A stretch of 64,000 nt of DNA, taken from assembly GCA_020628035.1 (NCBI GenBank), contig JAHDFS010000003.1:2616-66615 (forward strand), written 5' to 3'. Numbering within the stretch: position 1 is the first letter of the stretch; the number at the start of each line of letters is the position of its first letter. This DNA comes from Rhizobiaceae bacterium (GTDB lineage: Bacteria; Pseudomonadota; Alphaproteobacteria; Rhizobiales; Rhizobiaceae). Shown piece after piece: positions 6,543-23,130 of this stretch. A program made the position numbers and the translations under genes. Below the pieces are notes generated by a model. That model saw only the letters and a program-made list of their open reading frames with translations. It searched no databases and had not been told where the DNA came from.

Positions 6543-7298
6543 ATGGGTATTTTAGAAGTCCAAAATGTGAATAAGAGCTTTGGTGGGTTGAAGGCTCTGA
6601 CGAATGTAAATCTTAATGTCGAAGAGGGTATGATCCACGCGATTATCGGGCCAAATGGTGCGGGCAAATCAACATTGCTCAACTGCTTTGTGGGCCGGTT
6701 GATCCCTGACACAGGCGCGGTGACCTTTGATGGTCAATCACTCTTGGGTAAAAAGCCGCACGAGATCAACCAAACAGGTGTGTCTCGTGTGTTCCAGACA
6801 CCGGAAATTTTCTCAGACCTTACAGTCCTAGAAAATGTCATGATCCCGTGTTTTGCCAAGCGTGATGGTTCTTATTCTTTGAACGCAATTAAGGCTGTTG
6901 GCAACGAGAAAGACATTCTCGAAAAAGCCGAGCAGATGCTGGTTGATGTGAACATGGCCGATAAACGCGATATGGTCGCGTCCTCTATGTCACGTGGTGA
7001 TAAACGTCGTTTGGAAATGGCCATGTGCTTGTCGCAAGATCCGAAGCTATTGCTCTTGGATGAGCCGACAGCAGGTATGGCGCGTGCTGACACCAATAAC
7101 ACGATTGACCTACTGGCTGAAATTCAGGAAAAACGACACATCACTATGGTCGTTATTGAACATGATATGCATGTTGTTTTCTCACTGGCACAGAAAATTT
7201 CAGTGTTGGCGCAGGGGACAGTGATTGTGGAAGATTTACCTGAAAAAATTAAAGGTCACCCAAAGGTTCAAGAAGCCTATTTGGGTGGTGCACATTAA
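6543..7298 (+). CDS. ABC ATP-binding protein (LivG-like)
   Basis: Walker [26 protein letters not shown]-terminal VQEAYLG. Confidence 0.93.
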   Translation: MGILEVQNVNKSFGGLKALTNVNLNVEEGMIHAIIGPNGAGKSTLLNCFVGRLIPDTGAVTFDGQSLLGKKPHEINQTGVSRVFQTPEIFSDLTVLENVMIPCFAKRDGSYSLNAIKAVGNEKDILEKAEQMLVDVNMADKRDMVASSMSRGDKRRLEMAMCLSQDPKLLLLDEPTAGMARADTNNTIDLLAEIQEKRHITMVVIEHDMHVVFSLAQKISVLAQGTVIVEDLPEKIKGHPKVQEAYLGGAH

Positions 7299-7322
7299 TT
7301 AAGAATAAGCTGAGTAGATATT

Positions 7323-8066
7323 ATGTCAGAAAATATGAATGCAAATCATGCAAAAAATGCCCCAGCTTATTTTTCAGCTTGGGATATTAAAGCCTATTAC
7401 GGTGAAAGTTACATCGTACAAGGGGTAAGCCTTAATATTCATGAAGGCGAAATCCTTGCGCTATTGGGTCGAAATGGTGCGGGTAAAACATCGACACTTC
7501 GCGCGTTGGCGCGTTTGTCAAATCCAATGGTCACACATGGTGAAATCTGGCTTGATCATCAACCACTTCACTTGATGAAAGCCCATGAAGCGTCACAAGC
7601 CGGTATTGGGCTCGTGCCAGAAGACCGCAGAATTATCCAAGGCCTAACGGTTGAGGAAAATCTGCAACTTGCGCAAATTGAAAAGCCTATTGGTTGGTCA
7701 ATCGAGCGCATTTATGAGCTCTTCCCACGTCTTGGCGAACGCGCAAAGCAAGAGGGCACAACGCTATCAGGTGGTGAACAGCAAATGCTGGCCATTGGTC
7801 GTGCCTTGGCCCGTGACATTAAATTGTTGTTGTTGGATGAGCCATATGAGGGGTTGGCGCCGGTGATTGTTCAGGAGATCGAAAAAACACTTCATCTCAT
7901 TCGCGAGCAAGGCATTACAACGGTCATTGTGGAACAAAACGCGGTTGCTGCGTTAAACCTTGCAGACCGTGCTGTCATCCTTGATACCGGCAAGGTGGTG
8001 TTTGACGGCACTGCGAAAGAGGTCCTCGACAACGAAGAACTTCGTCACGAATATCTGGCCATTTAG
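7323..8066 (+). CDS. ABC ATP-binding protein (LivF-like)
   Basis: GRNGAGKTS, LSGGEQQMLAIGRAL, LLLDEPYEGLAP, VEQN. Confidence 0.93.
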   Translation: MSENMNANHAKNAPAYFSAWDIKAYYGESYIVQGVSLNIHEGEILALLGRNGAGKTSTLRALARLSNPMVTHGEIWLDHQPLHLMKAHEASQAGIGLVPEDRRIIQGLTVEENLQLAQIEKPIGWSIERIYELFPRLGERAKQEGTTLSGGEQQMLAIGRALARDIKLLLLDEPYEGLAPVIVQEIEKTLHLIREQGITTVIVEQNAVAALNLADRAVILDTGKVVFDGTAKEVLDNEELRHEYLAI

Positions 8067-8075
8067 AGGCTATTC

Positions 8076-8105
8076 AAAGCCCCATCTTCAGCTGGTGGGG
8101 CTTTT
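8076..8105 (+). terminator. hairpin / intrinsic terminator between the ABC operon and acs
   Basis: AAAGCCCCA...TGGGGCTTTT inverted repeat. Confidence 0.65.
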
Positions 8106-8145
8106 ACAAATATATACATTTGACTAATAGTGCAGGGAGAACGCT

Positions 8146-10089
8146 ATGAGCGATCCAATTTTTCCACCCGCTGATGAATTTGCAAATTCGGCACATATTT
8201 CCAAAGCAAAATATGATGAAATGTATGCGTCATCCGTCGCTGATCCTGATAAATTCTGGGGCGAAGTCGGCAAACGTCTGGATTGGATTGAACCTTTCAC
8301 GATCGTAAAAAACACAAGCTTTGCCTATGACAATGTGTCGATCAAATGGTTTGAAGATGGTGTCCTCAATGTCTGCGCCAACTGCGTAGACCGTCACTTG
8401 GAAACACGCGGAGATCAGACTGCGATTATTTGGGAAGGTGATGATCCAACCGTCTCTGAGCACATTACTTATAACCAACTTCATGAACATGTTTCGCGCC
8501 TCGCAAATGGATATAAATCTTTGGGCGTTGGCAAAGGTGATCGCGTTATTTTATATATGCCGATGATCCCAGAAGCCGCCTATGCAATGCTTGCTTGTGC
8601 GCGTATCGGTGCGGTTCATTCCATCGTCTTTGGTGGTTTCTCTCCGGATGCGCTTGCAAGTCGCGTAACAGATTGTGGCGCTAAACTGCTTGTCACAGCA
8701 GATGAAGGCCCGCGTGGTGGTAAAAACATCCCGCTTAAGAAAAATGTCGATGCGGCATTGGAAATTTCAGGCGATGTGACAACGATTGTCGTCAAGCGGA
8801 CAGGCGGTGGCCCGGGTAACAAACCTGGCCGCGACCATGATTATGGTGAGCTTGTTGCAAGTGTATCAGCTGATTGCCCTGTGGAGCCAATGAATGCGGA
8901 AGATCCGCTATTTATTCTTTATACTTCTGGTTCAACAGGTAAGCCAAAAGGCGTGTTGCACACATCAGGGGGCTATCTCACTTATGCCGCCATGACACAT
9001 GAATATGTCTTTGATTATCATGATGGTGACATTTATTGGTGTACTGCTGACGTTGGTTGGGTCACAGGACACAGCTATATCGTCTACGGCCCGCTCGCCA
9101 ATGGTGCCATCACCCTTATGTTTGAAGGTGTGCCAACTTATCCAGATGCGTCGCGCTTCTGGCAGGTCTGCGAAAAACACAAAGTCAATCAATTCTACAC
9201 AGCGCCAACCGCGATCCGCGCATTGATGGCACAAGGCAAAGAACCGGTTGAAAAGTGCGATCTTTCAACGCTGAAAGTTTTGGGCACTGTGGGTGAACCG
9301 ATCAACCCAGAAGCTTGGAACTGGTATAACGAAGTTGTCGGCAAGGGTAATTGCCCAATCGTTGACACTTGGTGGCAGACAGAAACGGGCGGTCATATGA
9401 TTACACCGCTCCCGGGCGCAACAGCTGCAAAACCTGGTTCTGCAACCAAACCATTCTTTGGTGTGCAGCCTGTTCTGCTTGAACCAACAACAGGCGCTGA
9501 GATCGATGAAACCGCCGCAGAAGGCGTGCTTTGCATCAAAGACAGCTGGCCTGGGCAAATGCGGACTGTTTATGGTGATCATGAGCGTTTTGTTCAGACA
9601 TACTTCTCTGATTATAAAGGCTACTATTTCACAGGAGATGGCTGTCGTCGCGATGCAGACGGTTATTACTGGATCACAGGTCGCGTGGATGATGTGATCA
9701 ATGTATCCGGCCACAGAATGGGCACCGCTGAGGTTGAAAGCGCGCTTGTTGCCCATCCAAAAGTATCTGAATCAGCCGTTGTGGGTTACCCACATGATGT
9801 GAAAGGGCAGGGCATTTACTGTTATGTCACGCTGAATGCAGGCGAAGAACCAACCGATGATCTTCGTGTTGAATTGCGCAATTGGGTGCGTAAAGAAATT
9901 GGCCCAATTGCATCGCCCGACCTCATTCAATGGGCACCGGGTTTGCCAAAAACGCGTTCTGGTAAAATCATGCGCCGTATTCTTCGCAAGATCGCAGAGG
10001 ATGATTTTGGTGCATTGGGTGATACCTCAACGCTTGCTGATCCTTCCGTTGTCGACAATCTGATCGACAACCGGATGAACCGTTCATAA
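8146..10089 (+). CDS. acs: acetyl-coenzyme A synthetase
   Basis: [46 protein letters not shown]; 647 aa. Confidence 0.97.
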
Positions 10090-10117
10090 TAATAATAAGA
10101 AAAGGCGCCAACCAAGT

Positions 10118-10148
10118 GGGTCGGTCTGAAAAGATCGACCCTTTTTTT
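10118..10148 (+). terminator. intrinsic terminator between the convergent acs and SDR genes
   Basis: GGGTCGGTCT-GAAA-AGATCGACCC followed by T7. Confidence 0.8.
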
Positions 10149-10153
10149 GTTAG

Positions 10154-10939
10154 CTATCCAAGTCCGATAACTCCGCCATCAACGGCAATCGATTGACGGG
10201 TCAGCATACGCGAAGCATCTGATGCTAAAAACAAAACAATCCCGACCATGTCTTCAGACACCAGTTTTTCAGGGATTGCCTGTGTTTCAAGATGTTTAGA
10301 AACCTTCTCTTCCGTCGCCCATAGATCAAGCTGACGTTGGGTAAATACCCATCCCGGCAACACAGAATTTACGCGGATATTGTCCTTGCCAAGTGTGTCT
10401 GCAAGTGCACGTGTCAGGCCGGCAATCCCCGCCTTTGCTGTGATATAAACCGGATATTGATCACCGCCCAAATGATGCGCAATCGACGAGAAATTGATAA
10501 TCGACCCACCACCCAGTTTGGCCATGTCTTGAGCTACATGTTTTGCGGTGAAGAAATGCGGGCGTAGATTGACATTTATAAGATGGTCGAAATCACCGGT
10601 TTCGGTTTCTTCAAGTTTGTGGCGATTATCAGACGCAGCATTATTGACCAAGACCTGGATCGGACCATAGGCCTCTTTTGCTTGATCAAGCGCTGTTTCA
10701 AGCGCAGGAATATCTAAAATATCACATTGAATAAACAAAGGCCGTTCGTGGTATTTGGTTTCCATCTCATCACAAAATTCACTTGCGTCACTACGCTGAA
10801 TAAATGTGACATGTGCGCCTTGCATTAAAAAACTTTCCGTCAGCAAAGCACCGATGCCGGAACCGCCACCAGTGATAAAAACAGATTTGCCTTTCAGATC
10901 AGGAAAGATCGCGCTCGGCATTCGTGATGATTGAGACAT
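10154..10939 (-). CDS. SDR sugar dehydrogenase, D-xylose 1-dehydrogenase-like
   Basis: SAIFPDLKGKSVFITGGGSGIG, NNAASDNRH, NVNLRPHFF, YITAKAG, PGWVFTQRQ. Closely resembles the Caulobacter XylB-type pentose dehydrogenase subfamily. Substrate inferred from context. Confidence 0.75.
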   Translation of the reverse strand: MSQSSRMPSAIFPDLKGKSVFITGGGSGIGALLTESFLMQGAHVTFIQRSDASEFCDEMETKYHERPLFIQCDILDIPALETALDQAKEAYGPIQVLVNNAASDNRHKLEETETGDFDHLINVNLRPHFFTAKHVAQDMAKLGGGSIINFSSIAHHLGGDQYPVYITAKAGIAGLTRALADTLGKDNIRVNSVLPGWVFTQRQLDLWATEEKVSKHLETQAIPEKLVSEDMVGIVLFLASDASRMLTRQSIAVDGGVIGLG

Positions 10940-12576
10940 TAATCCTCCGCAGGGTACCAGTAATTTGCACTTGGGCTGTCACGTTGGATGATAACATGAT
11001 TATTGGCAAATACTTTATACGGATGGCTCCAATCTCCATTTGGCCATTGCACACGGATCGTTGCGCGTTCGGCAACACCTAATCCAAAGTGATTAAACCC
11101 AAGTTGTCCGGACGCATGACCGCCACCAATTTGCACAGTTTTATTCTGCGTTAGATTGCCGGTTTTAACCGAGATCTTCGCGCCAACCGCATCCTTGTTG
11201 ATATCGCCATTATCAAGTTCAATCTTGATCCAATTGCCCATCGGACGATGGCCCCAACTGGTTTTTGCGCCTTCATTGATGAAGAGGTTCACATTGGTTT
11301 TGCGATTGACAACGAGCATATCGAGCATGCCATCGGCATTGAAATCCTCAATCACAGCGCCTCGCCCTGCTGAATTTAGTGCAATGCCGGCCTCATCACC
11401 CTTTTCGGTGAATTTATTATCAATACCGCCGAGCAACATATTATCCGGATCATAACTTGCGAAATCCGTCATTGCTTCGACATTGCCTTTTGCGATGTAT
11501 AAATCTTTATGCGTGTCATTGTTAAAATCAATAAATTGCGAATGCCAACCAGTGGATGGTTTTAAGTCGTCGCCCGTATATGGACGATGCGCAGTTGCGC
11601 CGCTTTCATAGGCAATATCGCGATAGATCGGGCTTTCTTCATCACTTTCTTCATCCAAAGATTGGATTTTTGTATCGCCCATAGACGTGAGTGCATATTC
11701 TGGATAGCCATCACCATTGAGATCAGCTTCCGCGATGCCCATACCCCAGATTTGTAATGTTTCCCAACCGTCATTTTGCGTATAAGCGCGTGGCGTCTCA
11801 CCAGGTGTAATTTGCCAGAGTTGTTCTTGTCCGCCACGGTAATATTGACGGTCATTGGTAATGCGTAGATCTGGTTCACCAGATTTGTTCCAATCTGTAA
11901 ACAGCATGGATAAGGAGCAATAACCCGGTTCTAAAGCGAGGGGTTCTGAATAGGTGCCATCTGCATTGGGTCTAAGCAGCATATTGGGCGAGCAGGTTCC
12001 CCAAGGTGTTCCAGGCGCATCGCGATCAACATAATTGCCGATTGCCATGGTGGGTAAAGCATTATCGCCTTCCCAAATAGCGGCAAAACCCGTGCTCCAT
12101 TCACGACCGCCTTTAATGGCAAACTCTTTATTTGCTTTGGTAAAGCTGCAGTCTGGGCCACCTTTTAAAATCTGATTGGCACCCAAGCGCAATAAGACCA
12201 AATCCGTATACGCATCATTATCGATATTGATCGGATAGGCGCCAAGTACTTTTAAATTGCTTCGGCCAATATCGAGTGCCTTTTCGGCGAAAGATAAGTT
12301 GCCGCCCGCAGATGATGTATTGACGAAAAGTTTTGCTTTGCCTTTGCCGCCACTTAAGAAAAGATCAGGCATGCGATCACCATTGCAGTCAAAACTTGCT
12401 GCGCCGCCGCCGACAAAGTATTCCCACGGACCAGAATAAGTATGTGTGATCCCGGCTTGTTCAGATTGCTCAATCATATTGGGCACATCAAATGGAAATT
12501 CGCTTGATTGCGCGGCTGATAGTCCGATGGAAAAAACCAAAGTGATGGCAGAACTTATTTTAAGATTATTCTTCAT
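10939..12576 (-). CDS. secreted CRTAC1-family protein (FG-GAP/calcium-blade beta-propeller plus ASPIC/UnbV domain)
   Basis: Signal peptide. Six DxDxDG-type blades (DCNGDRMPDL, NIDNDAYTDL, DWNKSGEPDL, DLNGDGYPEY, DFNNDTHKDL, DFNADGMLDM). C-terminal GGGHASGQLGFNHFGLG...VQWPNG typical of ASPIC/UnbV. Confidence 0.85.
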   Translation of the reverse strand: MKNNLKISSAITLVFSIGLSAAQSSEFPFDVPNMIEQSEQAGITHTYSGPWEYFVGGGAASFDCNGDRMPDLFLSGGKGKAKLFVNTSSAGGNLSFAEKALDIGRSNLKVLGAYPINIDNDAYTDLVLLRLGANQILKGGPDCSFTKANKEFAIKGGREWSTGFAAIWEGDNALPTMAIGNYVDRDAPGTPWGTCSPNMLLRPNADGTYSEPLALEPGYCSLSMLFTDWNKSGEPDLRITNDRQYYRGGQEQLWQITPGETPRAYTQNDGWETLQIWGMGIAEADLNGDGYPEYALTSMGDTKIQSLDEESDEESPIYRDIAYESGATAHRPYTGDDLKPSTGWHSQFIDFNNDTHKDLYIAKGNVEAMTDFASYDPDNMLLGGIDNKFTEKGDEAGIALNSAGRGAVIEDFNADGMLDMLVVNRKTNVNLFINEGAKTSWGHRPMGNWIKIELDNGDINKDAVGAKISVKTGNLTQNKTVQIGGGHASGQLGFNHFGLGVAERATIRVQWPNGDWSHPYKVFANNHVIIQRDSPSANYWYPAED

Positions 12577-12584
12577 GCCAACAC

Positions 12585-13997
12585 CTATTTAATTTCAAGC
12601 GTGCGCAAAAACGCAATCAGTTGTTGTTGAAGCACCTCATCCAGCGCGAGATAGGCATCTCTTGATGCGCGCGCATCACCGCCATGGGCGCTTATTACTT
12701 CGGTGAGATCATACATATCATTACGGTGGCCATAGGGAGCGGTTGATGCAACACCCCAAAGTTCAGCGGTGATGAAAATATTGCGGTCCACAAAACGTTG
12801 CGACATCAATTCATTTCCAAAGGCGTCAACTTCACTATCGGTCATTGTGTGGCGTTTAAGATCACCGAATAAAGGTACCATTACTTGGCCATCATCATTG
12901 CGAGGCAGGGCTTCAGCCCATTCGAGCATGGCAAGGTCATAAGTTGCTGGTGCTTCCACCTGATAGGTTTGTAGCGTGCCGGCTACATCAAACAGACCAG
13001 GATCATCAAACTGCAATGAGTTTAAAGGTAACGCTGGCATGTGGCATTGCGCGCAGCCAATTTGATCAAATACTTGTTTGCCCTTTTCTGCGGCCGCTTG
13101 CCATTCTGCATTATCCGGCTTGGCAACAATTGGTGGGCGCAAAGTCGCTTGCCATGCGACAAGGGCGGACACATCGGCAGAGCTCAGCTCCTCTGTCATA
13201 CCATCCTCATCAAAATCACTTTCACCTGTCCATCTCGCGCCAAAACGTTCGGTCGCCTGCATGCCATGGTGATGGTTTGATGCGTTGACCGTAAATTGCC
13301 GCAAAGATGTCATCACACCTTTTTGGCTGAACGGGCGCACCACAAGGTCTGTGTCAATGCCATCAATTTCACCAAGCTGTAAAACCCCATCGGGCAGCGC
13401 TGTGATGAACCCATATGAAATGCCTTTTGAGGTGAGTTCAACGCGTGTTGGTTTCTGCTCAGAACGTGCAGTTTTCAAAGCATTGCGGCGAATGTCGTGC
13501 AAGTCAGTGGTGATCTCTCGTGCAAGCAGTTCAATCAGCCCAGCACCAAATAAATGATTGGTGCCGCGTTCATTTGAAAATTGCGGATTGATCGAATCAA
13601 AATCTGCATTGGTGAAACCTTCTGAGACGAACACATTGGTGACAAAATCACCAGCGCCGCCCAAAAGCGGTTCATTGTGACACGCACCGCAAGACGCTGC
13701 ATCTGGCCCTGAGGTTCTGGCAAAGGCAGTTTTTGATAGACGTCGTGCTTTGGTCGGTAAGATCGCAGCGGTTGCCATCGGACGGCCCGCGCCTTCTGAC
13801 TTTTTAAATTTGGCTTCGAATAATTCTTCGCCCGCTTGTACAAGCACATCTAATTCTTCGCGGCCCAAAAATCCGATCGGCATTTGTGTGATCCGGCCAA
13901 TCGCATCTGTTTTTTCTGCCCAAGGCAGTGTGTTATCTGCAAAGCTATGTGTTGCACTTAGACACACTAAGCCCACCAAAATAAGTGAAGTACGCAT
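12585..13997 (-). CDS. secreted di-haem cytochrome c oxidoreductase (DHOR/DUF1111-like, bCcP/MauG superfamily)
   Basis: Signal peptide. Two CxxCH motifs (SCGACH, GCAQCH). HLFGAGLIE, PFSQKG, GDLKRH, LWGVASTAPYGH and HGGDA...LIAFLRTL match the DHOR-type architecture. Confidence 0.82.
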   Translation of the reverse strand: MRTSLILVGLVCLSATHSFADNTLPWAEKTDAIGRITQMPIGFLGREELDVLVQAGEELFEAKFKKSEGAGRPMATAAILPTKARRLSKTAFARTSGPDAASCGACHNEPLLGGAGDFVTNVFVSEGFTNADFDSINPQFSNERGTNHLFGAGLIELLAREITTDLHDIRRNALKTARSEQKPTRVELTSKGISYGFITALPDGVLQLGEIDGIDTDLVVRPFSQKGVMTSLRQFTVNASNHHHGMQATERFGARWTGESDFDEDGMTEELSSADVSALVAWQATLRPPIVAKPDNAEWQAAAEKGKQVFDQIGCAQCHMPALPLNSLQFDDPGLFDVAGTLQTYQVEAPATYDLAMLEWAEALPRNDDGQVMVPLFGDLKRHTMTDSEVDAFGNELMSQRFVDRNIFITAELWGVASTAPYGHRNDMYDLTEVISAHGGDARASRDAYLALDEVLQQQLIAFLRTLEIK

Positions 13998-15232
13998 CAG
14001 TTAAATTTCCACTTTGTGCCGTTTTGTTCGGATATAATATTGCTATCAAGATCACTCAGACATGACTGCACATTGCCATTGAAAATGAGATGGCCCTCGT
14101 CGGTGTGAAAGCTGACCTCTGGCATTTTATTGCGCCTGACCTGCAAGGTATTTTGAATGCCCTCTAAGATCGATGTTTGCATAAGATCATAAAACAAAGT
14201 TCCATGACCGGTAATAGCAATTGGCATCGGCCCTAATAATGTGAGTAATCGGCCAAGCCCAATACCAAGCGCTTCGCCAGCTTTACGAAATGCATATTCA
14301 GATTGGTGATCACCATTGCGCGCACGAACGGCAATATTCTCAATTTCTTTGAGCGGAATAAATTTTGCGGGTACCACATCATCATCCACTTCAAATGCCG
14401 TGCGCAATATTCCGTAAAAGCCTGCGATAGATTCAATACATCCATGGGCGCCACAACGACATAAAGGCCCGTTGGGGTCATGCATCATATGTCCAAATGG
14501 CGGCGCGAACGAGCTGATTTTACCATTGGCTTCTTCCGTTGCGATACCAAGACCAATGGAGTGGCTGAGAGAAAGCGTTGCCAATTTGCGATTACTGAAC
14601 CCGCCCAGTTTTGCAGCGCGCTGTTCGGCAATTGACTGCGCAGCAAATTGCGTATCATTCGTCAGTCTGATTTGTGCTGGTAAGATTGGTCTGAGTAGAT
14701 CTTCAAAGTTCATTGTTTTATCTTCAAAGACAGGCGACCATAAAAGTTCTGGCTTGCCAGACGCCACCAATCCTTTGGTTGTGATAGAGACGGTCAATAT
14801 TTGTTCTGGCTGCAATTCGCTCCGTTCGATAAGGCGCTGGATATCGTTCTTAAGACGGTTTGAAAATGTATCAATATCCGTTTCCGCCGGAGGTCGTTTT
14901 TCCTCAAAGCGATCTTTCAATGTGCCCGCATAATCAACCAGCGAATATTGCACCATCTCTGAGGTGATCCGCACGATTGCGACAAAGGCACAATTTGGAT
15001 TTTGGCGAAATTTAACACGTGGTCGTCCACGACCCGCAGACGGGGCTTGTTCCTCACGTAGTAAGATGCCTTCTTTTTCAAGCTCGGTGGTAATCGTTGA
15101 GACGGTTGCTGAGCTTAAACTTGTCCATTGCGACAATTCCGTATGGGAGACCGAGCCGAGCCGACGCAGGGCCGATAAAATCAAGCCTCGGTTCTGCTTC
15201 CTTAAATTCTCAGTACTCGCCTTCATAAGCAT
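13997..15232 (-). CDS. xylR: ROK-family transcriptional repressor (XylR-like)
   Basis: N-terminal HTH (NRGLILSALRR...LSSATVSTITTEL...GRGRP). ROK Zn motif FGHM...CRCGAHGCIES. Divergent from xylFHG. Confidence 0.85.
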   Translation of the reverse strand: MLMKASTENLRKQNRGLILSALRRLGSVSHTELSQWTSLSSATVSTITTELEKEGILLREEQAPSAGRGRPRVKFRQNPNCAFVAIVRITSEMVQYSLVDYAGTLKDRFEEKRPPAETDIDTFSNRLKNDIQRLIERSELQPEQILTVSITTKGLVASGKPELLWSPVFEDKTMNFEDLLRPILPAQIRLTNDTQFAAQSIAEQRAAKLGGFSNRKLATLSLSHSIGLGIATEEANGKISSFAPPFGHMMHDPNGPLCRCGAHGCIESIAGFYGILRTAFEVDDDVVPAKFIPLKEIENIAVRARNGDHQSEYAFRKAGEALGIGLGRLLTLLGPMPIAITGHGTLFYDLMQTSILEGIQNTLQVRRNKMPEVSFHTDEGHLIFNGNVQSCLSDLDSNIISEQNGTKWKFN

Positions 15233-15291
15233 CGAAAGAATAACCCATTATAATCTAAAAGCTATTTAGAGCCAAAAAGAGAATTTGTCAA

Positions 15292-15312
15292 TTTTCTCGT
15301 GACTCGAAATAA
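15292..15312. promoter_or_regulatory. putative ROK operator 1 (TTTTCTCG-TGACT-CGAAATAA)
   Basis: 21-bp imperfect palindrome that shares its consensus with a second copy 55 bp away. Confidence 0.65.
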
Positions 15313-15317
15313 ATATG

Positions 15318-15347
15318 TTGACTCGCAGAAAAAAATTTGGCAAACAT
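15318..15347 (+). promoter_or_regulatory. putative sigma70 promoter for xylF (-35 TTGACT at 15318, -10 region near 15341)
   Basis: TTGACT followed 17 bp later by CAAACAT, bracketed by the two operators. Confidence 0.4.
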
Positions 15348-15367
15348 TTTTTCGACTGTCGAGAAAA
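15347..15367. promoter_or_regulatory. putative ROK operator 2 (TTTTTTCGAC-T-GTCGAGAAAA)
   Basis: 21-bp palindrome with one mismatch, upstream of xylF. Confidence 0.7.
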
Positions 15368-15452
15368 TTAATTTTCGATCGGTTCTAACGACGAAATGAG
15401 GGGCCAAGTATTTCGCGTCTCATCATACATTTATCATTTGGGAGGAATTCAA

Positions 15453-16490
15453 ATGAACAAATTCGCAACTATGTTGCTTGCCGGCGCAGCTCTATCTGTT
15501 GTTGCTTCTGGTGTCGCTGTCGCTAAAGACAAAGTAATCGGTGTTTCTTGGTCAAACTTCCAGGAAGAGCGCTGGAAAACTGACGAAGCTGCAATGAAAG
15601 CTGCTATCGAAGCAAATGGCGACAGATACATCTCAGCTGATGCGCAAGCTTCTGCTGCAAAACAATTGACAGACGTTGAGAGCTTGATCGCTCAAGGCGC
15701 AAACGCACTTATCATTCTAGCACAAGATTCAGGCGCAATTGGCCCAGCTGTTGATAGTGCTGCAAACGAAGGTATTCCGGTTGTTGGTTATGACCGTCTT
15801 ATCGAAGATGCACGTGCATTCTACCTAACATTCGACAACGTTGAAGTTGGCCGCATGCAGGCGCGCGCTGTTTTGGCTGCAAAGCCTGAAGGTCGTTATG
15901 CATTCATCAAAGGTTCTTCAGCTGATCCAAACGCTGACTTCCTATTCGGTGGTCAAATGGAAGTTCTTAAAGAAGCTATGGATGCAGGTAAAATCACCAA
16001 TGTTGGTGAAGCTTACACAGATGGTTGGAAGCCAGACAATGCTCAGAAAAACATGGAGCAAATCCTAACAGCTAACGACAATGGCGTTGATGCTGTTGTA
16101 GCATCAAATGATGGTACAGCTGGTGGTGTTGTTGCGGCTCTTGAAGCTCAAGGTCTTGCAGGTTCTGTGCCAGTATCTGGTCAGGATGGTGACCATGCTG
16201 CTCTAAACCGTGTTGCTCGCGGTACACAAACAGTGTCTGTTTGGAAAGATGCTCGAGAGCTTGGTAAGGCAGCTGGTAACATCGCTGCAATGCTTGCTGA
16301 CGGTAAAGCAATGGGCGACATTCCAGGTGCAGTCAGCTGGTCAGGTGGCGCAAATGGCGTTGAAATGACAGCTCAGTTCCTAGCGCCAATCCCAGTGACA
16401 AAAGACAACCTAAATGTTGTTATCGACGCTGGCTGGATCGCTAAAGACAAAGCTTGTGAAGGTGCAATGGCTGGCGTTTCTGGCTGTTAA
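15453..16490 (+). CDS. xylF: D-xylose ABC transporter substrate-binding protein
   Basis: Start after GGAGG. Signal peptide. IGVSWSNFQEERWKTDE, YDRLI, ASNDGTAGG, VSGQDGD, QTVSVWKD are XylF-type motifs. Confidence 0.88.
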   Translation: MNKFATMLLAGAALSVVASGVAVAKDKVIGVSWSNFQEERWKTDEAAMKAAIEANGDRYISADAQASAAKQLTDVESLIAQGANALIILAQDSGAIGPAVDSAANEGIPVVGYDRLIEDARAFYLTFDNVEVGRMQARAVLAAKPEGRYAFIKGSSADPNADFLFGGQMEVLKEAMDAGKITNVGEAYTDGWKPDNAQKNMEQILTANDNGVDAVVASNDGTAGGVVAALEAQGLAGSVPVSGQDGDHAALNRVARGTQTVSVWKDARELGKAAGNIAAMLADGKAMGDIPGAVSWSGGANGVEMTAQFLAPIPVTKDNLNVVIDAGWIAKDKACEGAMAGVSGC

Positions 16491-16508
16491 TCTTTATAAA
16501 ATCAAAAT

Positions 16509-16541
16509 ATTCACATCGCGCGATCATCGTGCGGTGTGAAT
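16509..16541 (+). terminator. stem-loop after xylF (mRNA-stabilising or attenuating hairpin)
   Basis: ATTCACATCGCGCGA-TCA-TCGTGCGGTGTGAAT (includes G-U pairs). Confidence 0.55.
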
Positions 16542-16617
16542 TCAATTTGAACTTTCCGCAACTTAGTTCGTGCAAATCGAAGCTGAGTTGTTGGCATGTT
16601 TTTCATTGGAGTTATCG

Positions 16618-17940
16618 GTGAGCAACAATAATAATATGCATCGCGCCAATAAAGTTGAAAACGAAAGCGGGTTTACGCGCTTCCTTCGTGCAACTGAATT
16701 AGACGTGCGTTTGCTTGGCATGATTGCAGCACTCATTTTAATTTGGGTGGGCTTTCATTTTTACGGACTGTTTGCAAACGGTTTCGGCGCGTTTCTAACG
16801 CCACGAAATTTGTGGAACTTATCTGTCCAAACATCGTCAATTGGCGTTATGGCATGTGGTATGGTGTTGGTCATCGTCACCCGGCATATCGATCTGTCGG
16901 TTGGTTCAATTCTTGGATTTTCTGCCATGTGTATGGCAATCCTGCAGGTCTGGATCCTGCCTGAAATATTGGGTCTGGGTCATCCACTCATTTGGATTAT
17001 CACAGCCATTGCAGGAATTTTGATCGGAACAATCATTGGCGCATTGCATGGCTATCTTATTGCCTATCTCGCAATTCCAGCCTTCATCGTCACATTGGGC
17101 GGTCTGCTGGTCTGGCGCGGAGCTGCATGGTTGCTTGCTAGTGGTGAAACAATTTCCCCAGTTGATCGCACATTTGCCAAACTTGGCGGCGGACCATTTG
17201 GTGCGATCGGTTCAACAGGCAGTTGGATCCTCGCCTTGCTCGCATGTGCGCTTGTTTTGTTTAGTTTCTGGCAAGCACGCAAAAAGCGTAAGCGGTTTAA
17301 TTTCCCATTGCGTCCGATGTGGGCAGAAACATTCTTGGGCGCTTTAGCATGCTTTGCGATTTTAGGGTTCGCCTGGATTGTAAACGCTTATCCTTGGCCA
17401 AAAGGTATCGTGCGTCGCTATGCGGCTGAAAACAATATCACAACACCGGTGGAAGAAATTTTCATTTCCCACGGTTTTGCGATCCCAGTATTGATCCTCA
17501 TTGCCGTGGGCGTTGCCATGACATTCTTAATGAGCCGTACTCGATTTGGCCGTTATGTCTTTGCCATTGGCGGCAATCCAGAAGCTGCGGAGCTTGCCGG
17601 TATTAAAACCAGATGGATCACCGTTAAGATCTTTGCACTTATGGGCGGTCTTTGCGGCCTATCAGCCATCATTGCCAGTGCGCGTCTTAACTCAGCGACC
17701 AATGCACTTGGTACATTAGATGAGCTTTACGTTATCGCGGCTGCCGTGATTGGCGGCACATCATTCGCTGGCGGTATCGGCACCATTTATGGGGCGATCT
17801 TAGGTGCCGTTGTCATGCAATCACTTCAAACAGGTATGATTTTGATCGGATTTGATACAGCCATTCAGCAAATGGTTGTTGGTGGAGTTCTCGTCTTCGC
17901 CGTCTGGATTGACACAATCTACCGCAGACGTGCGAAATAA
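16618..17940 (+). CDS. xylH: xylose/sugar ABC transporter permease
   Basis: Probable GTG start at 16618 after [46 protein letters not shown]. Confidence 0.88.
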
Positions 17941-17954
17941 GAGGAGTTGGGATA

Positions 17955-18755
17955 ATGACTGATAAAAATTCAAACACATCCTCAAAAACGCCACTTGTTG
18001 AGATGAAAAATATTTCAATCGGGTTTGGAGGTATCAAAGCGGTTGATCATGCTGATGTTGATCTATTCCCGGGCGAGGTCGTTGCGATCCTTGGTCACAA
18101 CGGTGCGGGTAAATCAACGCTGATCAAAATTCTGTCTGGCGCTTACAAGCGTGACGAGGGTCAGATTTTTGTAAATGGCGAAGAAGCCGTGATCAACAAT
18201 CCGCGCGATGCTAAGAAATATGGCATTGAAACCATCTATCAGACTTTGGCGGTTGCCGATAATGTGGATGCAGCGGCAAACCTTTATCTGGGGCGTGAGA
18301 TTCTCACCAATTTCGGAACCCTAGATGACGCAGCCATGGAAGCTGAAGCACGGAAAGTGATGGGTCGATTGAACCCGAACTTCCAACGCTTTAAAGAGCC
18401 TGTCAGCAAATTATCTGGTGGTCAGCGCCAATCGGTGGCAATTGCAAGAGCGATTTTGTTCAATGCCAAAATCCTAATCATGGATGAGCCGACAGCTGCG
18501 CTGGGTCCGCAAGAAACTGAGCAAGTTGGACAATTGATCCAGCAGCTGAAAAAGGATGGCATTGGCATCTTCCTCATCAGCCATGACATTCATGATGTAT
18601 TCGATCTCGCAGATCGCGTCGCTGTCATGAAAAACGGTCAGGTTGTTGGTTATGCAAGAACCGAAGATGTGACCAAAGATGAAGTGCTTGGTATGATCAT
18701 TTTGGGCAAATGTCCTGACGGTGCAATCCCCGGTCCAGGGGCTATGCAGGAATAG
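17955..18755 (+). CDS. xylG: sugar ABC transporter ATP-binding protein (single NBD)
   Basis: [37 protein letters not shown]. Confidence 0.88.
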
Positions 18756-18788
18756 ACTTCCCCCTCCCGGGATAGTTAGCTTAGACTT

Positions 18789-18830
18789 TGCAATTTGCGA
18801 CACATTATGTGTCGTAAATCGCAGAGTTTT
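18789..18830. promoter_or_regulatory. inverted repeat between xylG and the GcvT-family dehydrogenase (terminator and/or TF site)
   Basis: TGCAATTTGCGACACA-TTA-TGTGTCGTAAATCGCA followed by GAGTTTTT. Confidence 0.5.
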
Positions 18831-18920
18831 TGCGTTTTATGGGTTACAAATCTAACTAGTAATTGAAATTTGATCTGCTAGTTTGATCGGGCAATCGTTA
18901 ACTGTGTCGGGAATGTTATC

Positions 18921-21434
18921 ATGGAAAGTAAAGCACGTGTTGTCGTTATTGGTGGGGGAGTTGTTGGTGTCTCAACACTTTACCATTTGGCGAAAAAAGG
19001 TTGGTCTGATTGTGTTCTGATTGAACGAAAGGAACTAACGTCCGGTTCCACTTGGCATGCAGCTGGTTTGCTACCGCTGTTTAACATGAGCTATTCCGTT
19101 GGTCAGATCCATAAATATTCCGTGAAATTTTATCGTGAGCTGGAAGAAGAAACAGGTGTAAATGTTGGTTTCTCAAATGTCAGCAATATTCGCTTGGCTA
19201 AAACTAAAGATCGCTGGGACGAATATATGTATTATGCAGGCGTTGCTGAAACACTTGGCATCCCGGTTAATATTCTAACGCCTGAACAGGTCAAAGAAAT
19301 CTGGCCTTTATGTGAAACGGAAGGTTTGCTAGGTGCCATCCAGCATCCTGACGATGGTTATATTCAACCCGCTGACTTGACCCAAGCCTTGGCAAAAGGC
19401 GCACGCGATTTGGGCGCGACAATCCAAAGATACACAACTGTGACCGCGATTGAAAAACTGGAAAACGGTCAGTTTGTTGTTAAAACAGACAAGGGCGATA
19501 TTACCTGCGATCATGTTGTGTCGTGTACAGGTAACTTTGCCCGCAAAACAGGAGCTATGGTTGGCCTTGATGTGCCCGTGATCCCAGTTGAGCACCAATA
19601 TATTGTCACCGAACCGCATCCGGATATTGTCGCACGCAAAGAACAAGGCCTACCGGAAATGGGCGTACTTCGTGAATCAGATAGCTCCTGGTATATGCGC
19701 GAAGAAAATGGCGGCTTGCTGCTTGGGCCTTATGAAAAAGGTGCACCTTGCTGTTATGTCGATGGACCAAGCGATGAAAGCGAATATGAACTTTTCCAGG
19801 AAGATATCGATCGTTTGATGCCGCATATTGAAACAGCGATTGAACGCGTGCCAGCTTTCGGCGAAGTCGGCATAAAGAAAGTCTATAATGGCGCGATTGC
19901 GTATACGCCTGATGGTTCGCCCATTATTGGCCCGGCGCCAGGTTTGAAAAATTTCTGGCTCAATGAAGGTCATTCGTTCGGAATTACAGCTGCCGGTGGT
20001 GCAGGCTGGCAATTGGCAGAATGGATTGTCGATGGCGAACCAACCATTGATATGATGGGTGTCGATCCACGCCGCTTTGGTCCTTATGCGACAGAAGGTT
20101 ATCTGCGTGAGAAAAACGAAGAAGCTTATGCCAATGTGTTCACCACACACTATCCGGATGAAGAGCGCGCGGCAGCACGTCCGCTGAAAACCACACCAAT
20201 TTATGATCGCTTGAAAGATCGCGGTGCGGTCTTTGGGTCTGTTTATGGCTGGGAGCGCGCCAACTGGTTTGCGCCTGAAGGTTATGAAGTGTCCAAGGAA
20301 GAGTTGGATCTTGGCGCTGATGTCTTAACCGATCACAATTATGCGCCACCAACTGATGATGGTCGCATTGTTGAAAGATGGTCATTCCGCCGTTCAAACT
20401 ATTTTGAGCATGTCGGCAATGAAGTTAAAAATGTGAACGAAAATGTCGGCCTTTTAGACATGTCCGCGTTTGCCAAGATCGAAGTCAGCGGCAAAGGTGC
20501 GCGTGATTGGCTGAACTATATTTTTGCCAACGCGGTTCCCAAAACACGTGGGCGTGTGGCTCTATGTCATTTGCTGACAAAATATGGCGGTGTGCGCTCA
20601 GAATTCACAGTATTTGAATTCAAACCGGATCATTTTTACCTTGTCTCCGCGGGTGCTTATGAAGCGCATGATCACGATATTCTAGGCAAATTACTGCCGG
20701 AAGATGGATCTGTTCAGCTTAAACCGATCACTGAGAAATATGGTGTTCTGGTGCTGGCCGGTCCAAAGTCGCGCGATGTCTTGTCTAAGCTGACACGCAC
20801 CAGCTTATCTAACGATGATTTCAAATGGCTCACAGGTAAAAAAATCTCCGTGGGTCACGCCACAGCCAACGCATTGCGCGTAAACTTTGTTGGCGAACTC
20901 GGTTGGGAGCTGCACCATCCTATCGAGCAACAAAATGCGATCTTCGATGCGGTTATGGAAGCCGGTGAAGAATTCGGCATCAAGCCGTTTGGCATCAGAG
21001 CAATGACGGCAATGGCGGTTGAAAAAAGCTACCGCTTGATCCCACGCGAACTCTCAATTGAGTATAATGCGTTTGAATCTGGTCTCGATCGATTTGTGAA
21101 ATTGAGCAAGGAAGATTTCCTTGGCAAAGATGCGCTTGTGCAAGCCAAAGAAGATGGATTGAACTGGAATTTTGTCACGATGGAAGTTCATGATGTCACA
21201 GATGCAGATGCACGCGGCAACGAAGCGATCTATAAAGATGGCGAGTTGGTTGGTCGTGCAACACATGGCGCTTATGGATATAGAATTGGCAAATCTCTAG
21301 CGCTCGCAATGGTCAAACCAGATGTGTCTGCCATCGGAACCCAGCTTGAGATCAAGATCCTTGGCAAGCTTCATAAAGCAACAATTGTTGAGGAAAGCCC
21401 ATTTGATCCAGAAAATGTTGCCTTGCGCGCTTAG
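18921..21434 (+). CDS. dimethylglycine/sarcosine dehydrogenase-like FAD-dependent oxidoreductase with GcvT domain
   Basis: GGGVVG FAD motif, TSGSTWHAAG (covalent-FAD His), YTPDGSP, FVGELGWELH, folate-binding C-terminus; 837 aa. Confidence 0.88.
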   Translation: MESKARVVVIGGGVVGVSTLYHLAKKGWSDCVLIERKELTSGSTWHAAGLLPLFNMSYSVGQIHKYSVKFYRELEEETGVNVGFSNVSNIRLAKTKDRWDEYMYYAGVAETLGIPVNILTPEQVKEIWPLCETEGLLGAIQHPDDGYIQPADLTQALAKGARDLGATIQRYTTVTAIEKLENGQFVVKTDKGDITCDHVVSCTGNFARKTGAMVGLDVPVIPVEHQYIVTEPHPDIVARKEQGLPEMGVLRESDSSWYMREENGGLLLGPYEKGAPCCYVDGPSDESEYELFQEDIDRLMPHIETAIERVPAFGEVGIKKVYNGAIAYTPDGSPIIGPAPGLKNFWLNEGHSFGITAAGGAGWQLAEWIVDGEPTIDMMGVDPRRFGPYATEGYLREKNEEAYANVFTTHYPDEERAAARPLKTTPIYDRLKDRGAVFGSVYGWERANWFAPEGYEVSKEELDLGADVLTDHNYAPPTDDGRIVERWSFRRSNYFEHVGNEVKNVNENVGLLDMSAFAKIEVSGKGARDWLNYIFANAVPKTRGRVALCHLLTKYGGVRSEFTVFEFKPDHFYLVSAGAYEAHDHDILGKLLPEDGSVQLKPITEKYGVLVLAGPKSRDVLSKLTRTSLSNDDFKWLTGKKISVGHATANALRVNFVGELGWELHHPIEQQNAIFDAVMEAGEEFGIKPFGIRAMTAMAVEKSYRLIPRELSIEYNAFESGLDRFVKLSKEDFLGKDALVQAKEDGLNWNFVTMEVHDVTDADARGNEAIYKDGELVGRATHGAYGYRIGKSLALAMVKPDVSAIGTQLEIKILGKLHKATIVEESPFDPENVALRA

Positions 21435-21591
21435 CCAAGGCAATTTCTGCTAAAATCGTGGAAAGATGCAATTTCGCACAAGTGTGCGGAATATGTCTGG
21501 GGGCCAAGCGTGTGATATATTGTAATATATTACACTGACGTGTATCTATCGCTTTTAAGGTCAAACCCGCACGTTGCGTAAAGGGCATAGA

Positions 21592-23130
21592 TTGCAAGGC
21601 ATTGAAAAAACACTCCGGGATACTTTGGGCAAATTAGAAAGCCCAGATGAAGCCACGAGGATTAAGCTATATAAAGCCACAGAGACGATCCTTGAGAGAA
21701 GTTTAGCGCCTTATCTCGAGACGCAGCCTGATATGGTTGAGGCGCGACGCTCGCAATTGGTTGAAATCGTCACACGCCTTGAAAATGAATACAAAAATCC
21801 TACACCCGCGCCAGCACCTGATCCAATTTTAGATGTGCCAGAAGCTCCCCAACAGGTGTCTCCATCAAACGCAATAGGCAATCAAGTTAGTCAGCCATCT
21901 GCAATAGATGAAAATTCGCAAGTCCCCGACGTTTCAGTTGATTATCCGGTCCTTCAACCTCAAGAAACGCCGTCAATAAGTCAGGCGCCTAATGTTGATG
22001 CGCCAAATATTGATGGACAAAGTGTTGAAGCGCCAAGTGTTGAAGCGCCGCGCAAAAACCCATCTGAGCCGCCGCAAGTCGCAACGCCAGTAGCACCGAG
22101 TTCAGAACCCAAACAAGTGCCGCCATCTGTAGATCCGGTACTTGCGCAAATTGATCAGTCAGAGGTGAGTGCGCCTCAAGTTAAAGCACCGATAGATGAC
22201 GCGGTTGATTTAACATCTGCGCCTGAGATCAAACCAACGCAGCGCAGCACAAGAAATTCAAATGTTGCCTGGCCAGATGCGGCAACCCACCCAGATCATC
22301 CTGAAAAGCCTGATCGCACGACAGTATTTGGTTTTGACAAAAGCGGTCCAAAATCTGCCCCAGATTCAGGATCACAAAACGAAAAATCAAAGGCCGAACT
22401 TCGTGCTGAAAAACGCGCGAAACGCAAACGCGAGAATGAACAAAAACGGGCAAAGAAAAAAGACAATCGACGACGCGGCCGCAGCTTGATTGATACAATC
22501 GCAGGGTCAATCGTATCTGTAATCTTGATCATATTCCTGATCGGCGGCACATGGATATTAGTTGAGAGCGAGTATTTCGATATATTCTTGGAGTGGCGCA
22601 ATGGCGGGCCGCTCGAACCCACAGCCGAAGAGCAGGTGGCACAAGATGATTTTATTCCAAAAGTTTTAAATGAAACAGCAGAACAAGAAGGCGACTGGAT
22701 TGAAGTCTTTGGTCCGGGGGATGCCGATAAGGCGCGCGGCCGGGGTGAGGTTTTGGTTGAAACCATCGGCGATGACGATGCTGGTGGCGTTCGGATTACA
22801 TCGGTCAATGCCGGCGAATTTGGCGAAGCTCTTATCCCGCTCAATGGACGTATCCTTGCGCCAGCTGCCTCGCGTAAATTTGCGCTTGCTTTATCCGTCT
22901 CAGTCACAGAACCGACACAAGTTTATGTTCGATGCTTACTTAAGAGTGGCGTTGAAATTGGTCGTCGACGTTTCCAGCTAGGCGGTGGTCGCACCGATGT
23001 GCTGATTGATCTTGATATGACAAATGTGGGCGCGTTTGAAACACAGCCTTATCTTGCGATCAACAGCGATATCACAGGTGGGGGCAAATCTGTCGAACTC
23101 TATGATGTCCGCTTTCAGGTACAAAACTAA
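21592..23130 (+). CDS. hypothetical bitopic membrane protein with long Pro-rich linker and C-terminal beta-rich periplasmic domain
   Basis: Probable TTG start at 21592. Helical N-terminus, about 190-aa P/A/S/V-rich region, basic stretch (KRAKRKRENEQKRAKKKDNRRRGR), one TM (IAGSIVSVILIIFLIGGTWILV), globular C-terminus. Confidence 0.75.
   Translation: MQGIEKTLRDTLGKLESPDEATRIKLYKATETILERSLAPYLETQPDMVEARRSQLVEIVTRLENEYKNPTPAPAPDPILDVPEAPQQVSPSNAIGNQVSQPSAIDENSQVPDVSVDYPVLQPQETPSISQAPNVDAPNIDGQSVEAPSVEAPRKNPSEPPQVATPVAPSSEPKQVPPSVDPVLAQIDQSEVSAPQVKAPIDDAVDLTSAPEIKPTQRSTRNSNVAWPDAATHPDHPEKPDRTTVFGFDKSGPKSAPDSGSQNEKSKAELRAEKRAKRKRENEQKRAKKKDNRRRGRSLIDTIAGSIVSVILIIFLIGGTWILVESEYFDIFLEWRNGGPLEPTAEEQVAQDDFIPKVLNETAEQEGDWIEVFGPGDADKARGRGEVLVETIGDDDAGGVRITSVNAGEFGEALIPLNGRILAPAASRKFALALSVSVTEPTQVYVRCLLKSGVEIGRRRFQLGGGRTDVLIDLDMTNVGAFETQPYLAINSDITGGGKSVELYDVRFQVQN
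21991..22050 (+). repeat. four degenerate 15-bp in-frame tandem repeats (NVDAP NIDGQ SVEAP SVEAP)
   Basis: aatgttgatgcgcca / aatattgatggacaa / agtgttgaagcgcca / agtgttgaagcgccg. Confidence 0.7.

Follow-up and report, generated by a model that had tools for sequence, protein, structure and literature searches.

We analyzed a 64,000-nucleotide stretch of DNA from a Rhizobiaceae bacterium (contig JAHDFS010000003.1), called the window below, in which the xylose-uptake locus of a marine bacterium hosts an exported beta-propeller protein and a two-haem enzyme. The nearest relatives of the source belong to Lentilitoribacter (Rhizobiaceae, Alphaproteobacteria) and are 96-97% identical. Seven open reading frames (ORFs) occupy positions 10154-18755, and a check of the ORF list confirmed their positions. 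Four of them form a minus-strand unit in the order ROK-family regulator (13997..15232), di-haem protein of the di-haem oxidoreductase (DHOR) family (12585..13997), CRTAC1-type propeller (10939..12576) and SDR-family protein (10154..10939), and this unit is divergent from xylFHG. The junctions were read directly from the sequence: the ROK and DHOR genes share a TGATG overlap at 13997, the DHOR gene and the propeller gene are separated by 8 nt between TAG and ATG (12577-12584), and the propeller and SDR genes share a TAATG overlap at 10939. An initial annotation, made from the sequence, had described a tight minus-strand unit divergent from xylFHG, and the ORFs, the family matches and the junctions bear this out.

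On the plus strand, xylF (15396..16490) encodes the substrate-binding protein of a D-xylose ABC transporter and was matched by TIGR02634 with 429 bits against an equivalog cut-off of 390. The permease gene xylH (16570..17940) and the ATPase gene xylG (17955..18755) were assigned by family matches. XylG of the window has one ABC domain (266 aa) and is matched in part by the two-domain XylG models of ~500 aa, and its XylH is long (456 aa).

The di-haem protein and the propeller

The minus-strand di-haem gene encodes 470 aa with a PF06537 (DHOR) domain and two CxxCH motifs, CGACH at residues 103-107 and CAQCH at 315-319, both of which were invariant across 45 sequences. Signal peptides had been proposed for both middle proteins of the unit, and Sec-type starts were recognized by eye in both. 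Together with the two motifs, this agrees with the annotation of the di-haem protein as an exported protein with two haems. The PF06537 score was 30 bits against the Pfam gathering cut-off of 22, with only model positions 408-499 of 499 aligned, and a precomputed table lists the domain in most of the close homologues. When the protein was compared with a canonical DHOR (168 bits to PF06537; locus L103, described below), the second haem domain alone was aligned (26% identity, 204 columns, E 3e-9 by BLASTP). In the PDB, 1eb7 was matched by phmmer (E 2.5e-4), and a profile search gave 1iqc (1.5e-4) and the MbnH structure 6e1c (4.6e-4), in each case with the C-terminal part of the protein. The family model TIGR03981 matched at E 4e-5. 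The structural model had a predicted local distance difference test (pLDDT) value of 69 and was poor around the haem sites; its top Foldseek rows were all cytochrome c peroxidase (CCP), MauG, MbnH or the gamma subunit of hydrazine synthase (HZS), at a weak E of 0.013 or worse. Every match is weak; by its DHOR domain and these matches, the di-haem protein is probably a divergent DHOR and, with it, a member of the CCP/MauG superfamily of bacteria. A distant DHOR homologue in another genome (G159, 35% identity) has no propeller gene adjoining it.

The residue His438 is invariant and was aligned, weakly, with Met275 of Pseudomonas aeruginosa CCP, a ligand of the second haem. We take the Met275 position to be that of the Tyr ligand in MauG. 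The distal Tyr ligand that defines MauG was not found at the aligned position, where His438 stands, and the weak alignment makes this comparison no more than indicative.

The propeller (545 aa, minus strand) is an exported CRTAC1-type calcium beta-propeller with FG-GAP_3 (PF13517) and UnbV_ASPIC (PF07593) domains and a C-terminal YWYP tail. Its AlphaFold2 model (pLDDT 86) matched murine CRTAC1 (9etn) with Z 37.1 and a root-mean-square deviation of 2.7 over 452 residues, and the next rows had Z 27. The DxNxDxxxD-type loops are invariant in the homologues of the propeller. In sequence, animal CRTAC1 is similar only over the UnbV domain and the blade that comes last, and a search of the ESM Atlas returned only the propeller's own family. 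Animal CRTAC1 and the UnbV/E4 proteins of enediyne clusters are likewise secreted and share the FG-GAP calcium propeller with the UnbV_ASPIC fold. However, animal CRTAC1 has an EGF-like domain, whereas our propeller ends soon after UnbV without that domain or any further Pfam match, and the subfamily at xylose loci has pocket residues of its own and, when partnered with DHOR, the YWYP tail. We know of no biochemical function for CRTAC1 or for the UnbV/E4 proteins of enediyne clusters.

Residue conservation was examined in 20 propellers with three types of partner, which are described in the next section. Invariant across the partner types were R238, N241, D242, R243, Y245, E251, Q252, W254, M299, D301, S341, T342, W344, K363, N365, M369, D376, R405 and R425. 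Three Met residues are invariant, as are many Trp, Tyr, Cys and Lys residues. When the faces are assigned from the integrin-type/FG-GAP topology, the invariant residues would lie mostly in top-face loops. The conserved pocket is formed by Arg, Asp, Glu, Asn, Lys, Trp, Tyr and Met residues, which would be appropriate for holding a sugar or an anionic ligand. A copper-radical oxidase of the galactose oxidase type was considered and rejected, since its two-His/two-Tyr ligand set is not conserved across the 20 propellers; kelch oxidases matched the propeller neither in sequence nor in fold. A sugar dehydrogenase dependent on pyrroloquinoline quinone (PQQ) was also set aside, since pqqC (TIGR02111) was not found in four of five carrier genomes, where scavenged PQQ is possible.

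The initial annotation had suggested a periplasmic module of two subunits, and structure prediction of the complex fits this suggestion. The ipSAE of the DHOR-propeller pair was 0.90 (0.89, 0.90 and 0.90 in three runs), whereas the best of three controls had 0.01; the pLDDT of the partners was 91 or higher, and the runs had 77% or more of their contacts in common. Among solved complexes, 58 of 80 reached that mark; among mismatched pairs, 2 of 110 did. Recall of a solved structure is unlikely, because no like complex is known. In the predicted interface, a beta-hairpin insertion of the di-haem protein (residues 203-219) meets the UnbV domain and the C-terminal tail (521-544) of the propeller; the tightest propeller contacts are at residues 521-526 and 535-544, and the main contact is the YWYP tail. 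The YRVFAN...YWYP C-terminus is limited to propellers from DHOR-bearing genomes, including two in which the genes are unlinked, and is missing from propellers with MauG-like or other partners. This co-variation in the sequences appears to be independent support for the interface, and the DHOR and the propeller are predicted to be a periplasmic heterodimer. In one genus (L098, L099 and L100; genomes G100 and G008), the DHOR gene lies directly beside xylF and no ROK gene is present. The YWYP-tailed propeller of this genus is encoded on another contig, once beside genes for an alpha-glucosidase and a MalK-type ABC transporter.

Association with xylose genes and exchange of partners

To follow the pair across species, we collected 80 loci at species level, whose DHOR homologues are 58-97% identical, and mapped the window proteins onto them. 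The propeller gene lay 3' of the DHOR gene in 79 of the 80 loci, a ROK gene lay 5' of it in 73, and xylF was divergent in 71. All six genes (xylGHF divergent from ROK-DHOR-CRTAC) were present in 64 loci of Alpha- and Gammaproteobacteria; for xylF, xylH, xylG and the complete set, the shortfall from 80 was due mostly to contig ends. Among the seven loci without ROK, one (L066) was cut by a contig end, and six had full flanks with neither ROK nor xyl genes. The implied gaps were short, with medians of 8 nt between ROK and DHOR and -1 nt between DHOR and propeller. Within 10 kb, xylA was found in 24 loci and xylB in 16, and in many related loci both follow xylG. These counts confirm xylose as the substrate of the transporter. 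The carriers include Rhizobiaceae, Hoeflea, Rhodobacteraceae (Amylibacter) and other Hyphomicrobiales, as well as the gammaproteobacterial Granulosicoccaceae and Thiothrix/Thiolinea. The great majority of homologous pairs thus lie beside ROK and xylFHG genes, as the initial annotation required of them. The SDR gene, in contrast, is outside the conserved unit: outside the Lentilitoribacter clade (L001-L006) it is not adjacent, and it is a clade-specific addition.

The propeller is the constant element of the module, and its di-haem partner is one of at least three interchangeable classes. In eight Rhodobacteraceae genomes (L087-L094), the arrangement is xylGHF divergent from ROK-propeller, without DHOR. 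In seven of the eight, a gene for a MauG-like di-haem protein of 447-457 aa is convergent to the propeller gene. This partner has PF03150, a signal peptide and a TIGR03981 score of 272 bits, and it matches CCP structures at E 3e-31. Its gene is preceded by xylB-xylA or by an aldose 1-epimerase gene. The epimerase genes directly upstream of the MauG-like gene at L088:5692-6834 and L090:5172-6332 encode an N-terminal extension of ~50 residues. Three other genomes have a vanadium haloperoxidase (VHPO) gene directly adjoining the propeller gene. This partner carries a Tat signal and is homologous to the vanadium iodoperoxidase of Zobellia (4cit, E 2e-68), and in one locus (L095) the order is xylB-xylA-xylF-xylH-xylG-propeller-VHPO.

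A family-balanced class sample added four further arrangements: ROK divergent from DHOR-propeller-xylFHG (L101), xylFHG-DHOR-propeller-xylB-xylA (L102), propeller-xylB-xylA, and a fusion of cytochrome P460 with a canonical DHOR followed by the propeller (L103). Whether newly formed or retained, the link of the propeller to xylose genes is thus present in five or more gene orders and with three partner classes. In L103 (G485:C1:186700-206600), one strand of positions 7174-19846 encodes, in this order, a 2477-aa ricin-type lectin protein, the P460-DHOR fusion, the propeller and a tetratricopeptide repeat (TPR)-secretin protein; this four-gene set may represent a haem-propeller pair that is secreted or placed in the outer membrane.

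The sole trait common to the three partner classes is the use of H2O2. One explanation that starts from this trait is an anticipatory peroxide defence, in which xylose would signal damaged algal or plant walls with their oxidative bursts and the regulon would bring a periplasmic peroxidase, with the propeller as its adaptor or as a docking subunit for the electron donor. The interchangeable partners are all H2O2 consumers, the carriers belong to marine lineages that are often associated with algae (for example Hoeflea, Amylibacter, Granulosicoccaceae and Lentilitoribacter), and the peroxidase gene of the Rhodobacteraceae comes after xylB-xylA. However, a defence would leave unexplained why the propeller, rather than the peroxidase, is constant and why the pocket is conserved with all partner types, and MauG-like enzymes are not typical detoxifying peroxidases. 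We therefore regard a defence as improbable.

The model organism Ruegeria pomeroyi probably carries the MauG-like form beside xylFGH. In strain DSS-3, the annotations are putative MauG for SPO0858 (PMC4809877) and putative xylose repressor for SPO0860 (PMC3390766), and SPO0861-0863 (xylFGH) were found by experiment to be a glucose/xylose transporter (PMC10130141). The identity of SPO0859 is taken from its position, and the supplementary tables of PMC10130141 gave no fitness values for SPO0857-0860. Since R. pomeroyi probably carries this form, the function is testable there.

Regulators and operator

The first gene of the minus-strand unit (ROK1 below) encodes a regulator with a winged helix-turn-helix (MarR/HTH_24) and a ROK domain, in which the CRCGAHGC zinc motif is visible. 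Two ROK clades, ~30% identical to each other, share the position upstream of DHOR, the window type in 29 loci and the other type in 41. The linkage is thus not simply one island inherited whole.

From palindromic half-site counts across the intergenic regions of the loci, a 21-bp consensus, TTTTCTCGACAGTCGAGAAAA, was obtained and used for a pattern search. In the window, the candidate operator TTTTTTCGACTGTCGAGAAAA (15347..15367) is a 21-bp palindrome with one mismatch to the consensus and lies 29 nt upstream of xylF. It is the single copy in the 64-kb window, where none is expected by chance, and in the 3.35-Mb genome when up to 3 mismatches are allowed. The initial annotation had described two operator-like palindromes in this region. 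The strong one stands, whereas the second copy (15292..15312), placed by eye 55 bp from it, is weaker, with 5 mismatches. An inverted-repeat scan of the intergenic region reported none. A similar layout with two sites occurs in L006, where the second site has 3 mismatches at 56 nt.

With up to 4 mismatches allowed, 30 of the 80 loci had an operator match, all of 3 mismatches or fewer, once per locus and in the xylF-ROK intergenic region wherever the gene positions allow a call. These 30 are all 29 loci with the window-type ROK and one locus (L014) whose ROK ORF was unclassified. In the loci with the other clade, no match was detected except one of 4 mismatches in L052. Thus, the operator tracks the ROK clade across species. 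With its winged helix-turn-helix, its ROK domain and a palindromic operator in its own divergent intergenic region, ROK1 has the features of a ROK-family sugar repressor of the XylR type. The genome has two ROK regulators for xylose genes. Its xylB-xylA operon lies on another contig (G000:C60:19186-21941; L083 and L081), and the divergent ROK regulator of that operon (L083:178-1452, minus strand) is 30% identical to ROK1. The window-type operator was absent upstream of this xylB-xylA, and so control of catabolism by ROK1 is not obvious. Since xylB-xylA has its own ROK paralogue elsewhere and lacks the operator, ROK1 is a dedicated local regulator, which presumably responds to xylose and controls its own operon.

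A candidate sigma-70-type promoter of the ROK operon (15247..15275, minus strand; TTGGCT, 17 nt, TATAAT) is a consensus match only, and such matches were not enriched over shuffled sequences. At the other end of the unit, a terminator scan and the sequence gave a hairpin with T-runs on both sides (10118..10141) between the convergent acs and SDR genes, which is likely the end of the four-gene unit. For the fourth gene (SDR, minus strand), the best NCBIfam model was D-xylose 1-dehydrogenase (XylB; NF053674), with a score of 260 bits against a cut-off of 400. On the other side of the locus, a gene of the dimethylglycine dehydrogenase type (DAO, FAO_M and GCV_T domains) lies 3' of xylG on the same strand (18921-21434) and is kept across the Lentilitoribacter clade (L001-L006), and a 518-aa ORF at 21574-23130 had no Pfam match.

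Possible function of the module

The initial annotation had supposed that no function was published for such a pair, and we found no paper that assigns one. In the literature that we searched, neither the CRTAC1-family proteins of bacteria nor the DHOR subfamily of the pair had a described function, and neither was linked to xylose. Related loci have been described for hydrazine synthase homologues outside anammox bacteria (PMC12758564), in which CCP-like di-haem subunits surround a CRTAC1-family FG-GAP gene and ABC substrate-binding genes are nearby; by their description they differ in having homologues of HZS alpha and beta-gamma, in their taxa and in that no xylose genes are reported. A DHOR-superfamily domain has also been reported in the Gilvimarinus 1,3-xylanase Xyn65 (PMC9638140). 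This analysis contributes tallies across species, the operator, a predicted heterodimer whose tail co-varies, and the architectures in which the pair is embedded in operons.

Starting from the gene order, the conservation, the operator, the folds and the exchange of partners established above, we tentatively favour, as the likeliest of the mechanisms considered, a peroxide-coupled periplasmic step, with a xylose-type compound as the substrate of the propeller and with peroxide dealt with by the bound partner; we hold this to be somewhat short of probable. In this scheme, marine and aquatic Proteobacteria would have the module as a conserved accessory of their xylose-utilisation loci, with DHOR and propeller transcribed behind the local ROK regulator. 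The conserved pocket of the propeller would bind a xylose-type sugar or a derivative of it, the redox step would take place in the periplasm, upstream of uptake by XylFHG, and the haem partner would handle peroxide or oxidising equivalents. In its simplest form, an oxidase-peroxidase tandem, the partner would consume H2O2 made at the propeller. Induction by xylose, the nature of the substrate, the role of peroxide and the question of which protein makes and which uses it are points that we infer. A functional analogy is found in the fungal tandem of a copper-radical alcohol oxidase and a haem peroxidase, where a secreted seven-bladed propeller and a co-regulated peroxidase have a tuned interplay (Bissaro et al. 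2022, PMC9770985). However, the propeller studied here has no homology to the oxidase of the fungal tandem, a copper enzyme of the kelch type whose cofactor is Tyr-Cys.

Several observations weigh against a peroxide-coupled step at xylose loci. No redox cofactor site was visible in the propeller. Among the 20 propellers with their three types of partner, His was invariant only at H496, in the UnbV domain, and no cluster of conserved His residues that might form a copper or iron centre was found. The gene pqqC was not found in the source genome (G000, 88% complete) or in three other carriers (G302, G374 and G278, each 100% complete), and it was found in one (G553). The docking site is predicted to be at the bottom face and the UnbV side, away from the top-face pocket, if the faces are correctly assigned. 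By their family matches, both di-haem partner types are nearer to MauG-like maturases than to canonical detoxifying peroxidases. For the supposed control of the ROK-DHOR-CRTAC unit by xylose, the position of the strong operator is unfavourable, as it adjoins xylF and is ~115 nt from the ROK start. Moreover, the pair is not confined to xylose loci. The six non-xyl loci among the 80 belong to four genomes of the Kiloniellaceae group, a Pelagibius and a Rhizobium sp., and further such contexts are the VHPO pairs of L096 and L097 and the set of L103; the neighbours in the six loci and the VHPO loci had no common theme. In an even sample of 401 Pseudomonadota genomes, the DHOR subfamily occurred in 6, the propeller subfamily in 16 and window-type xylF in ~37, and about 1 in 7 of the window-type xylF loci had DHOR.

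The last two of these observations would be expected if the pair were an autonomous two-gene module that has moved or been inherited with a ROK-xylFHG island and has no function in xylose use: the pair also occurs in unrelated contexts, most window-type xylF loci are without it, and related genomes are not independent samples. However, the propeller stands beside xyl genes in at least five gene orders, including an insertion between xylG and xylB, and with three partner classes; two ROK clades occupy the upstream position; and the association spans two classes of bacteria at ~45-65% protein identity. Hitch-hiking of this kind is therefore only barely credible.

The absence of a visible cofactor bears on two other explanations. 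The initial annotation had mainly proposed that the pair oxidises pentoses or oligosaccharides, with electrons passed to haem. In that scheme, the propeller would be a periplasmic dehydrogenase, and its electrons would go through the two c-haems to the respiratory chain. Periplasmic proteins in a xylose locus with a tight predicted complex are consistent with such a dehydrogenase, and its Arg/Lys/Asn/Asp/Trp pocket may resemble the pockets of anionic cofactors. Quinohaemoprotein dehydrogenases are precedents. However, this explanation does not generalise, because the same propeller subfamily pairs with vanadium haloperoxidase, which is no electron acceptor. In addition, pqqC was not found in most of the carriers, the predicted docking is away from the inferred pocket face, and the haem protein is assigned to the CCP/MauG superfamily, whose members activate peroxide, rather than to the electron-carrier cytochromes. 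Since a vanadium haloperoxidase is unable to accept electrons from a dehydrogenase, we favour a peroxide-linked function and consider transfer of sugar electrons to haem improbable as well. A second suggestion of the annotation, that the pair removes peroxide made by sugar oxidation, is closer to the comparative data.

The strongest specific rival of the peroxide-coupled step is a maturation as by MauG or MbnH, in which a propeller residue would be modified post-translationally by the di-haem enzyme, with H2O2 or O2 being used. The product would be a protein-derived cofactor or a cross-link, and the matured propeller would be the working enzyme, for example a sugar oxidoreductase of the quinoprotein type. 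In the systems of MauG with pre-methylamine dehydrogenase (biogenesis of tryptophan tryptophylquinone) and of MbnH with MbnP, as here, a periplasmic di-haem enzyme of the CCP/MauG type is encoded beside a dedicated partner, with which it forms (here, is predicted to form) a specific complex, and the complex of methylamine dehydrogenase with MauG includes a seven-bladed propeller subunit. Here, in contrast, a divergent DHOR takes the part of the haem protein and a CRTAC1-type FG-GAP propeller that of the partner, and the loci are for xylose rather than for amines or copper.

In NCBIfam, both di-haem partner types match MauG-like families best, and the MbnH and MauG models match too. The tight, partner-specific predicted interface and the co-varying Tyr-Trp tail would fit a dedicated pair of enzyme and substrate, and the propeller has many invariant Trp, Tyr, Cys, Met and Lys residues. 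A maturation would also account for a propeller without a cofactor motif and for the absence of pqqC. On the other hand, a vanadium haloperoxidase is hard to fit as a maturing partner, unless hypohalite does the modification, and His438, in place of the Tyr of MauG, is the residue aligned with the distal ligand of the second haem. Furthermore, since the Tyr-Trp tail is absent with other partners, it is not the common modified site. Maturation is thus rather unlikely, and unlikelier still is a more far-reaching possibility, in which the propeller would represent a new class of periplasmic sugar oxidoreductase with a self-derived cofactor installed or serviced by a dedicated peroxide-using partner (DHOR, MauG-like enzyme or vanadium haloperoxidase).

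Handling of a metal was also considered. The di-haem enzyme would then oxidise a metal held by the propeller, for instance so that Mn, Fe or Co is supplied or detoxified alongside the metal-dependent xylose isomerase. MbnH-MbnP is a copper-linked precedent for such a role, and the propeller has its three invariant Met residues. The operon EfeO-DUF1111-EfeO-DUF1513, with EfeO-like proteins and a canonical DUF1111, likewise combines a DHOR/DUF1111 di-haem protein with an exported beta-propeller, and it was linked to iron uptake by mutant fitness data (Price et al., bioRxiv 10.1101/072470). However, its propeller is of the DUF1513 type and it has imelysin/EfeO proteins and an iron phenotype, whereas the locus studied here has no EfeO and is concerned with sugar transport. 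No gene for a metal transporter or an EfeO-like protein was seen in any locus examined, a vanadium haloperoxidase would be an unfitting partner, and the link is to the xylose transport genes and only sometimes to xylA. Metal handling is therefore very unlikely.

If the propeller did represent such a new class of sugar oxidoreductase, this would give the first biochemical function for the fold common to human CRTAC1 and the enediyne E4/UnbV proteins, and it would add an unrecognised oxidative step to marine xylose use. To our knowledge, xylose catabolism is regarded as fully mapped by the isomerase, Weimberg and Dahms pathways, none of which needs a periplasmic haem enzyme or a propeller, and neither the CRTAC1/UnbV fold nor the DHOR family has an established biochemical activity. 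In dozens of marine Alpha- and Gammaproteobacteria, the pair is built into xylose loci in several independent ways. This points to a missing periplasmic step, probably peroxide-linked, in the uptake of a major algal sugar by ocean bacteria, and it opens a first tractable genetic route to the CRTAC1/UnbV fold and to the DHOR family.

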